From Escherichia coli (GTDB taxonomy: Bacteria; Pseudomonadota; Gammaproteobacteria; Enterobacterales; Enterobacteriaceae), in the NCBI RefSeq assembly GCF_044647545.1, contig NZ_CP172818.1: a stretch of DNA of 64,000 bases; one strand, given 5' to 3'. Below the pieces are notes generated by a model. The model was not told the DNA's origin. It searched no databases and was given only the letters and a program-made list of their open reading frames with translations. The position numbers and the translations under genes are program-made. Each line of letters begins with the position of its first letter. Within the stretch, counting starts at the first letter, position 1. Shown here one piece after another: positions 1,886 to 27,456 of this stretch.

Positions 1886-1921
1886 CAGAAAAAAGAGGGT
1901 AGCAGCGTTAACTGCTACCCT
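1886..1921 (-). terminator. Intrinsic terminator in gltI-gltJ spacer
   Basis: Hairpin gagggtagcag/ctgctaccctc followed by U-run on minus strand. Confidence 0.6.
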
Positions 1922-2044
1922 CGAAGATTGTTACCCAGCGTATTGCGGTTTTCAGGCCCGATGGGGAACGACCACCAGGCGTATAGTCTGTCCGTGCTAC
2001 GTAACAATCGAGAGGGCTGGAATTTCCGCCCCTGGTTCTTGTAA
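1886..2044 (-). ncRNA. sroC: SroC sRNA (processed from gltI-gltJ intergenic region)
   Basis: Position between gltI stop and gltJ start ending at the intergenic terminator; boundaries approximate, from established knowledge. Confidence 0.4.
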
Positions 2045-2953
2045 TTAGTTCAGTGCCTTGTCATTCGGTTCTTTGAACAGTGCTTTCATTTCGTCTGACA
2101 GTTCGAAATTCATGTTCAGGTTTTTCGGCGGAATTGGGTTTTTGAACCACTTATCAAACCATTTTTCCGCTTCACCGGAGGTCTGCACCTGAGCGATAGT
2201 GTCATCCATCAGCTTTTTGAACTGCGGATCGTCTTTACGCAACATGCAACCGTAGGCTTCCTGAGACTGCGGCTTGCCGACGATTTCCCAGTTGTCTGGT
2301 TTCTTCGCTTTCGCACGTTCACCGGCCAGCAGGGCATCATCCATCATAAAGGCAACGGCACGACCGCTTTCCAGGGTGCGGAAAGAGTCACCGTGATCTT
2401 TGGCGCTGATGATGCGCATGTTCATTTTTTGCTCTTCATTCAGTTTGTTGAGCAAAACTTCAGAGGTGGTGCCGGAAGTGACTACGACGGCTTTGTCTTT
2501 CAGATCGGCAAAATCTTTAATATCGCCGCCTTTTTTTGTCAGCAGGCGCGTACCGACCACGAAAATAGTGTCGGAGAAAGCCGCCTGTTTTTGGCGTTCG
2601 ACGTTGTTGGTGGTAGAACCGCATTCAAAATCGAAAGTGCCGTTTTGCAGCAGTGGAATACGGTTTTGTGAGGTGATCGGAATCAATTTCACCTGTAAGT
2701 CTGGTTTGTTGAGTTTCTTTTTCACTGCTTCAACAATGGCGTTGGAGTAATCCTGCGAGTAGCCCACCACTTTTTGCTGATTGTCGTAATAAGAGAAAGG
2801 TACTGAAGATTCACGGTGACCGACGACAATCACGCCGTTTTTGGCGATTTTGTCCAGCGTGCTGCCTGCTGCCGGGGCGGCGTCATCTGCCTGTGCCAGT
2901 CCTGCGGAAAGCGCCAGGGCCAGGATTGCTGTGGCAGGTTTACGTAATTGCAT
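2045..2953 (-). CDS. gltI: Glutamate/aspartate periplasmic binding protein
   Basis: ORF 2045..2959; signal peptide MQLRKPATAILALALSAGLAQA; 302 aa from second Met. Confidence 0.9.
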   Translation of the reverse strand: MQLRKPATAILALALSAGLAQADDAAPAAGSTLDKIAKNGVIVVGHRESSVPFSYYDNQQKVVGYSQDYSNAIVEAVKKKLNKPDLQVKLIPITSQNRIPLLQNGTFDFECGSTTNNVERQKQAAFSDTIFVVGTRLLTKKGGDIKDFADLKDKAVVVTSGTTSEVLLNKLNEEQKMNMRIISAKDHGDSFRTLESGRAVAFMMDDALLAGERAKAKKPDNWEIVGKPQSQEAYGCMLRKDDPQFKKLMDDTIAQVQTSGEAEKWFDKWFKNPIPPKNLNMNFELSDEMKALFKEPNDKALN

Positions 2954-12513: not shown

Positions 12514-12588
12514 TGGCTGGGGTACGAGGATTCGAACCTCGGAATGCCGGAATCAGAATCCGGTGCCTTACCGCTTGGCGATACCCCA
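12514..12588 (-). tRNA. glnX: tRNA-Gln (anticodon CUG)
   Basis: 75-nt cloverleaf sequence read on reverse strand, anticodon loop UUCUGAU, 3' CCA encoded. Confidence 0.9.
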
Positions 12589-12625
12589 ACTGGGTGCACT
12601 TACAAGGTAAGCGTCTTGAATAAAT

Positions 12626-12700
12626 TGGCTGGGGTACGAGGATTCGAACCTCGGAATGCCGGAATCAGAATCCGGTGCCTTACCGCTTGGCGATACCCCA
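12626..12700 (-). tRNA. glnV: tRNA-Gln (anticodon CUG)
   Basis: Identical copy of the preceding tRNA-Gln(CUG). Confidence 0.9.
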
Positions 12701-12748
12701 ACAAATTGGTTTTTGAATTTGCCGAACTTATTCGACACATTCAGAATT

Positions 12749-12825
12749 TGGTGGCTACGACGGGATTCGAACCTGTGACCCCATCATTATGAGTGATGTG
12801 CTCTAACCAACTGAGCTACGTAGCC
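12749..12825 (-). tRNA. metU: tRNA-Met elongator (anticodon CAU)
   Basis: 77-nt tRNA, anticodon loop with CAU, 3' CCA. Confidence 0.9.
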
Positions 12826-12840
12826 AGATTGTTTCTTCGA

Positions 12841-12915
12841 TGGCTGGGGTACCTGGATTCGAACCAGGGAATGCCGGTATCAAAAACCGGTGCCTTACCG
12901 CTTGGCGATACCCCA
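12841..12915 (-). tRNA. glnW: tRNA-Gln (anticodon UUG)
   Basis: 75-nt tRNA, anticodon loop UUUUGAU. Confidence 0.9.
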
Positions 12916-12949
12916 ATAACCGGGCGGTGAACCGCTTACTCGAAGAAGA

Positions 12950-13024
12950 TGGCTGGGGTACCTGGATTCGAACCAGGGAATGCCGGTATCAAAAACCGGT
13001 GCCTTACCGCTTGGCGATACCCCA
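12950..13024 (-). tRNA. glnU: tRNA-Gln (anticodon UUG)
   Basis: Identical copy of tRNA-Gln(UUG). Confidence 0.9.
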
Positions 13025-13047
13025 TCCGTACAACGCTTTCTGGTGAA

Positions 13048-13132
13048 TGGTGCGGGAGGCGAGACTTGAACTCGCACACCTTGCGGCGCCAGAACCTAAA
13101 TCTGGTGCGTCTACCAATTTCGCCACTCCCGC
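13048..13132 (-). tRNA. leuW: tRNA-Leu (anticodon UAG)
   Basis: 85-nt class II tRNA with long variable arm. Confidence 0.9.
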
Positions 13133-13140
13133 AAAAAAGA

Positions 13141-13217
13141 TGGTGGCTACGACGGGATTCGAACCTGTGACCCCATCATTATGAGTGATGTGCTCTAACC
13201 AACTGAGCTACGTAGCC
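13141..13217 (-). tRNA. metT: tRNA-Met elongator (anticodon CAU)
   Basis: Identical to the metU copy at 12749..12825. Confidence 0.9.
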
Positions 13218-26107: not shown

Positions 26108-26147
26108 GTGAGAGCTGTAACTCTCGCTTTTCTTATTTCCCTTGCAT

Positions 26148-26179
26148 AAAAAAGCCAACCCGCAGGTTGGCTTTTCTCG
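26148..26179. terminator. Bidirectional terminator between chiQ and fur
   Basis: gccaacc-cgca-ggttggc hairpin flanked by A6 and T4. Confidence 0.6.
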
Positions 26180-26190
26180 TTCAGGCTGGC

Positions 26191-26637
26191 TTATTTGCCT
26201 TCGTGCGCGTGCTCATCTTCGCGGCAATCGCCTTCGGCACAGTGACCGTAAAGATAGAGACTGTGGTTAGTCAGGCGAATGCCATGTTTTGCGGCAATTT
26301 CACGCTGACGCGCTTCGATGGAATCATCACTAAATTCGATTACCTTGCCGCAGTCGAGGCAGATCAGGTGATCGTGGTGATGTTGCTGTGTCAGTTCAAA
26401 TACGGATTTACCGCCTTCAAAATTGTGGCGGGTGACGATACCAGCGTCGTCAAACTGGTTCAGTACGCGATATACCGTAGCCAGACCAATTTCTTCACCC
26501 ATATCGATCAGACGTTTGTATAAATCTTCCGCACTGACGTGATGGTTGTCCGGCTCCTGAAGAACTTCCAGGATTTTTAAACGAGGAAGCGTTACTTTCA
26601 GGCCAGCTTTCTTTAGGGCGGTATTGTTATCAGTCAT
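26191..26637 (-). CDS. fur: Ferric uptake regulator
   Basis: 148 aa ORF with metal-binding HHHDH and CxxC motifs. Confidence 0.95.
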   Translation of the reverse strand: MTDNNTALKKAGLKVTLPRLKILEVLQEPDNHHVSAEDLYKRLIDMGEEIGLATVYRVLNQFDDAGIVTRHNFEGGKSVFELTQQHHHDHLICLDCGKVIEFSDDSIEARQREIAAKHGIRLTNHSLYLYGHCAEGDCREDEHAHEGK

Positions 26638-26716
26638 GCGGAATCTGTCCTGTTACTAAGCGGTTCACTTCATTAGAAGAAGTGACAGAATTTGCTCTTG
26701 AGATAATGCGTATCAT
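26630..26716 (-). CDS. uof: uof, 28-codon upstream ORF translationally coupled to fur
   Basis: MIRIISRANSVTSSNEVNRLVTGQIPHD; its stop overlaps the fur ATG. Confidence 0.7.
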   Translation of the reverse strand: MIRIISRANSVTSSNEVNRLVTGQIPHD

Positions 26717-26720
26717 TATA
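26702..26720. promoter_or_regulatory. Fur box-like site
   Basis: gataatgcgtatcattata resembles the 19-bp Fur consensus. Confidence 0.4.
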
Positions 26721-26925
26721 GAATTGCCACGCCTAAATGAAAACCACAAGTCCCTGGCAAATATTGTTAATAAAAACGTGGCACAGCTTACATTTACAAC
26801 GGCAAGGCCACTTGAACACCGGGACATTGTACAGGTACAACAGCAAAAGTTACAAATTTGTAGCAATTATTTTGATTGGCATTATCTATTAATACGGCGT
26901 AGACATGAGTCTACGCCGCATCACA

Positions 26926-27456
26926 TCAGGCATTGAGAATTTCGTCGAGATGCAGCTCTTCAGAAATTTGTTTAACCCATTTTTCTACACGTTCAGCGGT
27001 CAGTTCCGGCTGACGATCTTCGTCGATAGCCAGACCGACAAAGTGGTCATCATCAGCCAGACCTTTTGACGCTTCGAAGTGGTAGCCCGCAGTTGGCCAG
27101 TGACCAACGATAGTTGCGCCGCGCGGTTCAATGATGTCGCGGATGGTGCCCAATGCATCGCAGAAGTATTCTGCGTAATCTTCCTGGTCGCCACAACCAA
27201 ACAGCGCAACCAGTTTACCATTAAAATCAATCTCTTCGAGAGTCGGGAAGAAGTCATCCCAGTCACACTGCGCTTCGCCGTAATACCAGGTTGGGATGCC
27301 CAGCAGCAGAATGTCATAAGCTTCCAGATCTTCTTTGCTGCTTTTTGCAATGTCATGGACATCGGCAACGTCTTTACCAAGCTGTTTTTGAATCATTTTT
27401 GCGATATTTTCGGTATTACCGGTGTCGCTGCCGAAAAAGATGCCAGTGATAGCCAT
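26926..27456 (-). CDS. fldA: Flavodoxin 1
   Basis: ORF 26926..27573; 176 aa from [16 protein letters not shown] (flavodoxin signature). Confidence 0.9.

Follow-up and report, generated by a model that had tools for sequence, protein, structure and literature searches.

The region that controls fur in this DNA is very probably the known fur control region of Escherichia coli, in which three signals overlap within one 19-bp stretch: the -10 hexamer (TATAAT) of the main sigma-70 promoter, the operator bound by Fur, and the start codon (ATG) of the leader ORF uof. A more accurate statement of the mechanism places a Fur operator on the -10/+1 region of the main fur promoter, the ATG of the operator doubling as the uof start on longer transcripts. 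We infer that Fur autorepression and uof-fur coupling act on different transcript classes. The ORF, operator, promoters and start sites are all already recorded in databases and in the literature for E. coli K-12; the practical point, which is often blurred in reviews, is that the mRNA of the Fur-repressed promoter cannot translate uof from its annotated start, because the transcription start site (TSS) at 26707 lies downstream of the uof AUG.

Materials and methods

The window is the whole stretch of DNA that was analysed, 64,000 nucleotides of an E. coli chromosome. Window positions were obtained by subtracting 683232 from NC_000913.2 coordinates. The coordinates in PMC2189734 were taken as NC_000913 version 2, because the fhuF and yjjZ starts given there differ from NC_000913.3 by 1977, the full shift from version 2 to version 3. 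The conversion was further calibrated with the version 2 genes of Kim et al. 2012 (PMC3415461; fur 709423-709869, uof 709862-709948) and by placing the 51-nt TSS strings of the same study in the window by exact match. Mapped 5' ends were those of Table S1 of Kim et al. 2012 (PMC3415461), which represents one study under one set of conditions. The background for the Fur box was estimated from 100 dinucleotide shuffles of the window, and the comparative set comprised 80 fur loci, one per species, ranging from Escherichia to Dickeya, Erwinia and Edwardsiella. This analysis established the geometry, that the box is unique, where the footprint and TSSs fall, and the conservation; for in vivo repression, translational coupling and the effect of RyhB we rely on published work.

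Results

The fur locus

The gene order in the window is chiP-chiQ on the plus strand followed by fur-uof-fldA-ybfE-ybfF on the minus strand. The fur coding sequence (26191..26637, minus strand), identified from the ORF list and from the RefSeq annotation of identical DNA, encodes the 148-residue E. coli Fur. Approximately 1.5 kb around uof-fur finds matches in 5424 of 5426 complete E. coli genomes, several of them 100% identical. The window is identical base for base to MG1655 over 26342..26954, and K-12 experimental coordinates therefore transfer exactly. Downstream of fur, a bidirectional intrinsic terminator common to the convergent chiQ was read directly at 26145..26172 (minus strand; AGCCAACC-TGCG-GGTTGGCT followed by TTTTTTAT, with the loop also given as cgca); a simple consensus terminator scan missed it. 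Elsewhere in the window, Rfam matches were the sroC sRNA (1887..2049, minus strand) and a cluster of seven tRNA genes (12517..13217, minus strand), both of which are expected in this region of the E. coli chromosome.

The Fur operator

The Fur box TATAAT-GATACG-CATTATC lies at 26702..26720 on the minus strand (TATAATGATACGCATTATC) and matches the consensus GATAATGATAATCATTATC at 16 of 19 positions, i.e. with three mismatches. Its hexamers are tATAAT, GATAcg and, on the opposite strand, GATAAT, the consensus being composed of three GATAAT-like hexamers. It is the only site in the 64-kb window, on either strand, with three or fewer mismatches to the consensus; none was expected, and none of the shuffled sequences gave such a site. 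The uof ATG (26716..26714) forms positions 5-7 of the box, an ATG being built into the consensus itself (GATA-ATG). The first-pass annotation, which had placed a Fur box-like sequence over the uof start and had proposed a comparison with published footprints, is borne out in both respects. The string that it gave, gataatgcgtatcattata, is the plus strand of 26702..26720, with four mismatches to GATAATGATAATCATTATC (15/19).

The DNase I footprint of Fur at fur reported by de Lorenzo 1988 and tabulated by Chen et al. 2007 (PMC2189734 Table 3; NC_000913.2 709931-709960, two sequence walkers, 12.3 bits, 83% coverage) converts to 26699..26728 and encloses the whole 19-bp box. The site thus combines a consensus match, overlap with a core promoter and its TSS, and DNase I protection as given in the literature table. 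Iron- and Fur-dependent repression in vivo was reported by de Lorenzo 1988, as cited in PMC7867234 and PMC12683245; fur autoregulation goes unmentioned in Beauchene 2015.

Promoters and 5' ends

The main fur promoter (26707..26743, minus strand) consists of the -35 hexamer TTTTCA (26743..26738), a 17-bp spacer and the -10 hexamer TATAAT (26720..26715), a 10/12 match in a consensus scan, with transcription starting at the A at 26707, the eighth nucleotide after the -10 hexamer. This TSS (version 2 position 709939) has 46 reads and gives a 70-nt leader. The Fur box begins with this promoter's -10 hexamer, whose last two bases and the following G make up the uof ATG; changing the A or T of this ATG therefore also destroys the -10 of the main promoter and alters the Fur box. 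A second promoter, 'Puof' (26819..26855, minus strand), has the -35 hexamer TTGTAA (26855..26850), an 18-bp spacer and the -10 hexamer TACAAT (26831..26826), seven nucleotides before the TSS, a G at 26819 (version 2 position 710051, eight reads). Both promoters thus show sigma-70 hexamers at a spacing within 16-18 bp and a mapped TSS. The upstream promoter is named as such and described as OxyR-dependent in the literature (PMC6191717, PMC2189734). A further TSS lies at 26850 (version 2 position 710082, minus strand, five reads), and read-through from fldA or ybfE has been reported as a source of longer fur transcripts (PMC4161252).

The dominant TSS sits 9 nt inside uof, downstream of the A of its AUG, in line with published descriptions in which the Fur box overlaps the -10 of Pfur-a and the fur TSSs lie within uof (PMC7867234), or in which Puof precedes the uof ORF and Pfur is internal to it (PMC6191717). 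Among the mapped TSSs, the uof AUG is carried by transcripts from 26819 and 26850 (eight and five reads) and is missing from those starting at 26707 (46 reads). Relative to the main promoter, the footprint spans -21..+9, and it is for this reason that the arrangement is autoregulatory, and not because of contact with the uof start. The first-pass annotation had regarded the box over the uof start as the expected autoregulatory arrangement; autoregulation stands, resting on the footprint over the -10 and TSS, and the uof start as its basis does not. With a short mRNA that lacks the uof AUG and an ATG shared with the -10 and the box, the transcript classes need separate treatment in experiments and models.

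A fourth mapped 5' end, at 26644 (version 2 position 709876, minus strand, 28 reads), falls between the fur Shine-Dalgarno (SD) sequence and the fur ATG and would leave a 7-nt leader devoid of an SD. No convincing -10 was found upstream of it; either RNA processing at this point or initiation of a fur mRNA that is translated poorly or not at all may account for it.

Several other features of the upstream region were observed. An OxyR-site-like block (ATAGATAATGCCAATCAAAATAATTGCTACAAATTTGTAACTT) and the Puof -10 (CTGTACAAT), within 26889..26826 on the minus strand, are near-invariant in 16 Enterobacteriaceae genera. A conserved block, CCACGTTTTT, lies at 26781..26772 (minus strand), corresponding to -74..-65 of the main fur TSS; this is roughly the position given in the literature for CAP/CRP modulation, and the TGTGA half-site itself is not conserved. 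In a hairpin directly 3' of fldA (GCGGCGTAGAC-tcat-GTCTACGCCG, approximately 26918..26894, minus strand), changes between genera are compensatory and a U-run is absent; the hairpin resembles a leaky terminator, which would fit cotranscription of fldA and fur.

uof and its junction with fur

The uof ORF (fur leader peptide, b4637) occupies 26630..26716 on the minus strand and comprises 28 codons with the translation MIRIISRANSVTSSNEVNRLVTGQIPHD*. It has the K-12 sequence and terminates in the first fur codons, and it is annotated in MG1655 and in the 100% identical E. coli genome FDAARGOS_497, where RefSeq lists the same ORF as 'uof: fur leader peptide'. Its codons include five UNN codons (TCA, three TCT and TTA) and the rare codons ATA, AGA and GGA, and no good SD was read before its ATG.

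At the junction, ATGACTGA (26630..26637, minus strand), the fur ATG occupies 26637..26635 and the uof TGA 26632..26630. The two frames overlap by 8 nt, a geometry compatible with translational coupling. Both the 28-codon uof upstream of fur and an overlap at its stop had been noted previously; the ORF agrees with the translation and with the K-12 and FDAARGOS_497 annotations, all on the minus strand, and the overlap holds for the frames but not for shared bases, the uof TGA lying 2 nt beyond the fur ATG. The TGA that does share bases with the fur ATG (A-TGA, 26636..26634) belongs to the third frame and not to that of uof. Translational coupling of uof and fur, together with control by RyhB, is the accepted description of the locus (PMC7534054, PMC12683245, PMC11550727).

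Conservation across Enterobacterales

The -35 (GTTTTCATTT) and -10 (TCTATAAT) of the main promoter are near-invariant across Enterobacterales. The box core GA(G/T)ACGCATTA is kept within Enterobacteriaceae, and the box has 3-4 mismatches in Escherichia, Citrobacter, Salmonella and Enterobacter and 6-7 in Klebsiella, Kluyvera and others. An ATG follows TATA in 72 of the 80 loci, a count that is uninformative because this ATG forms positions 5-7 of the Fur-box consensus. The fur start reads ATGAC(T/C)GA in 29 of 30 aligned genera, 28 with ATGACTGA, and in Edwardsiella ATGACCGA retains only the first TGA. Since ATGACTGA contains TGA in both alternative frames, as do the fur starts of most Enterobacterales, an ORF that enters from upstream necessarily terminates there.

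In 48 of the 72 loci, the frame that begins at the -10 ATG runs open as far as the fur start, compared with 1/72 and 31/72 for the other two frames; because the loci are phylogenetically non-independent, these counts are only indicative. The 48 open loci comprise 36 with the uof frame (28-30 codons), seven with the other frame ending at A-TGA, four fused to fur in frame and one running into fur. Length variants of 79, 82 and 85 nt preserve the frame, and lineages with other spacings carry an open ORF in the other frame, which ends at A-TGA. In the remaining 24 loci uof is closed, including those of Salmonella arizonae, Klebsiella oxytoca, Raoultella, Atlantibacter, Pantoea and individual Citrobacter and Pluralibacter species. 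Furthermore, the pattern expected from purifying selection on the peptide, with third positions the most variable, was not seen in codons 2-16 of the 22 distinct 28-codon sequences, the entropy being 0.66, 0.49 and 0.55 at positions 1, 2 and 3, respectively. Codons 17-28 are nearly invariant at every position, also in species that lack uof, and this constraint therefore acts on the RNA or the ribosome-binding site and not on the peptide. On the whole, some pressure for an open ORF is plausible, but uof is evolutionarily unstable and the sequence of its peptide unconstrained. Conservation of the upstream promoter does not depend on uof: the Puof -10 and the OxyR-site-like block are near-invariant in both uof-open and uof-closed loci (16 genera).

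Individual loci depart from the common arrangement. In four loci from Buttiauxella, Dryocola and Enterobacter sp. R1 (L055, L056, L058 and L061), the -10 ATG lies approximately 66-69 nt upstream of fur and in frame with it, with no stop between, and judging by the reading frame their long transcripts could encode Fur with an N-terminal extension of 22-23 residues. In Enterobacter asburiae, codon 2 of fur is ACA and not ACT; the TGA of the uof frame is lost, and the upstream ORF has 49 codons and ends 68 nt into fur. A locus labelled Citrobacter freundii M-21 has an Atlantibacter-type fur leader, and its label is possibly wrong.

Leader RNA and the fur ribosome-binding site

The fur SD sequence AGGA was read directly at 26648..26651 (minus strand), 10 nt before the ATG, and its GGA is invariant in 30 genera. 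RNAalifold predicted a potential 3-bp mini-hairpin at this site (GGA-CAGAU-UCC) from 19 leaders; its bases are invariant and it therefore lacks covariation, and it was the only structure returned because MAFFT mis-registered a variable stem-loop upstream. Folding of each sequence individually revealed this stem-loop, TCACTTC-ttctaat-GAAGTGA (26665..26685, minus strand), within uof codons 11-17. It recurs at the same position across loci L002-L064 with varying stems (ACTTCC/GGAAGT, GCTCC/GGAGC, GCTCA/TGAGC, GCCC/GGGC and CTCCC/GGGGG), and the pairing is retained in species both with and without an open uof. The predicted stem-loop may influence mRNA stability or the context of the ribosome-binding site. 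No Rfam family was found in 26500..27000, even at E = 1, and the short E. coli leader as a whole showed no unusual structure or stability (z = 0.04).

The predicted pairing probability of the fur SD is approximately 0.7 in species with an open uof, with a closed uof and with no ATG, and comparative folding thus gives no support for a requirement for uof-specific unmasking. Greater occlusion of the SD in uof-open species was ruled out by the predicted values (0.69 versus 0.71).

RyhB

Windowed duplex scans for RyhB pairing near uof gave best energies of -10.2 to -11.6 kcal/mol, compared with a mean best of -16.2 for shuffled leaders; the published model of RyhB-uof pairing was likewise not predictable (PMC3018821). 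Two weak candidate matches, both pairing with RyhB U42-C45, were noted: GGCGUGGCAAU at 26733..26723 (minus strand), present on long mRNAs only, and GAGCAA at 26697..26692 (minus strand), present on all fur mRNAs including the short one. In Sinha 2018, RyhB was reported to reduce the amount of the short fur mRNA but not that of the long uof-fur mRNA; a RyhB site in the initiation region of uof, which the short mRNA lacks, is hard to square with this.

Discussion

In the proposed mechanism, abundant Fe-Fur would bind 26699..26728 (-21..+9) and block RNA polymerase, which is classical autorepression. On the main-promoter transcript, with its start at 26707 and a 70-nt leader that lacks the uof AUG, synthesis of Fur would rely on the AGGA ribosome-binding site of fur itself. 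The whole of uof would be present only on longer, less abundant transcripts, which arise from the upstream OxyR-type promoter (26819), the TSS at 26850 and read-through from fldA. Ribosomes that translate uof on such transcripts would terminate at the UGA at 26632..26630, which lies 5 nt beyond the first base of the fur AUG, and could then reinitiate or open the fur ribosome-binding site, i.e. translational coupling, which RyhB is reported in the literature to lower. On the long transcripts, Fur occupying +100..+118 could in addition be a roadblock to elongation.

A more restrictive reading, which we hold only tentatively, is that uof coupling and RyhB action via uof are limited to minor, stress-induced transcripts, uof being an unstable by-product, and that RyhB acts on the short mRNA through a site downstream of 26707. 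Such a site is hinted at by the northern blots of Sinha 2018, and under this reading conservation in the leader would be confined to the SD region, the stem-loop at 26685..26665 and the two promoters.

The coupling, toeprint and RyhB experiments of Vecerek 2007, as cited in later papers, weigh against a second alternative, which is unlikely: that uof is largely an incidental ORF whose coupling contributes little to Fur homeostasis in nature. Both of its ends come free, the ATG with the Fur box and -10 (GATA-ATG, TATA-ATG), being part of the consensus, and the stop with fur codons 2-3 (ACT GAY), where TGA stands in both alternative frames in most Enterobacterales, and only by chance would the approximately 76 nt between them be open in Escherichia and related bacteria. 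In addition, the main TSS excludes the ATG, no good SD precedes it, the ORF is closed in a third of the 72 loci, codons 2-16 vary at positions 1 and 2 as much as at position 3, and the predicted occlusion of the fur SD is equal in open and closed species. However, the excess of open frames from this ATG (48/72, again only indicative for non-independent loci) over those of the other two, the preservation of frame in the 79, 82 and 85-nt variants and the presence of other-frame ORFs ending at A-TGA at other spacings also count against this alternative.

Less likely again is that the box regulates uof-fur as one unit, Fur over the uof start controlling the same coupled mRNA through a roadblock or as 'the' fur mRNA: reviews do state that metallo-Fur inhibits 'uof-fur transcription' (PMC11550727), and on the transcript from 26819 the box falls at +100..+118, where bound Fur could by its geometry impede elongation, but the footprint covers -21..+9 of a conserved promoter with the most TSS reads, the -10 hexamer is the first box hexamer, the same arrangement is found in species without uof (Yersinia enterocolitica, PMC7867234; Salmonella arizonae), a weaker box (six mismatches) lies over the same -10 in K. 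oxytoca, and evidence for a roadblock was not found.

The preferred reading, a Fur operator on the core of the main promoter with uof on longer transcripts, can be compared with other systems. The closest is uof-fur of E. coli K-12 itself (b4637/b0683; promoters furp (a/b), uofp and fldAp), which has the same 28-codon ORF, Fur box, promoters and TSSs; there is no difference in the uof-fur control region, and the window differs by three substitutions in the 3' part of fur (26209, 26212 and 26341) and by several in fldA. Pfur of Y. enterocolitica (PMC7867234) is likewise preceded by fldA and weakly autorepressed in response to iron, and a Fur box (TATAATGAGACGCAATTGA) situated approximately 84 nt upstream of fur overlaps its -10; however, it has no uof ORF and its box is only 58% identical to the consensus. 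The promoters of fhuF, fepA-fes, cir, tonB and iucA (PMC2189734 Table 3) similarly carry an operator over the core promoter with an array of GATAAT-like hexamers. Among these Fur promoters the fur site is one of the shortest and weakest, with a 30-bp footprint and 12.3 bits, compared with up to 103 bp and 23 bits (PMC2189734), which fits moderate autoregulation. Finally, thrL and ivbL with GcvB (PMC7534054) resemble uof in that expression of the downstream gene drops when an sRNA acts on the short ORF ahead of it; these leaders work by transcription attenuation, whereas uof is described as acting by translational coupling through the 8-nt overlap.
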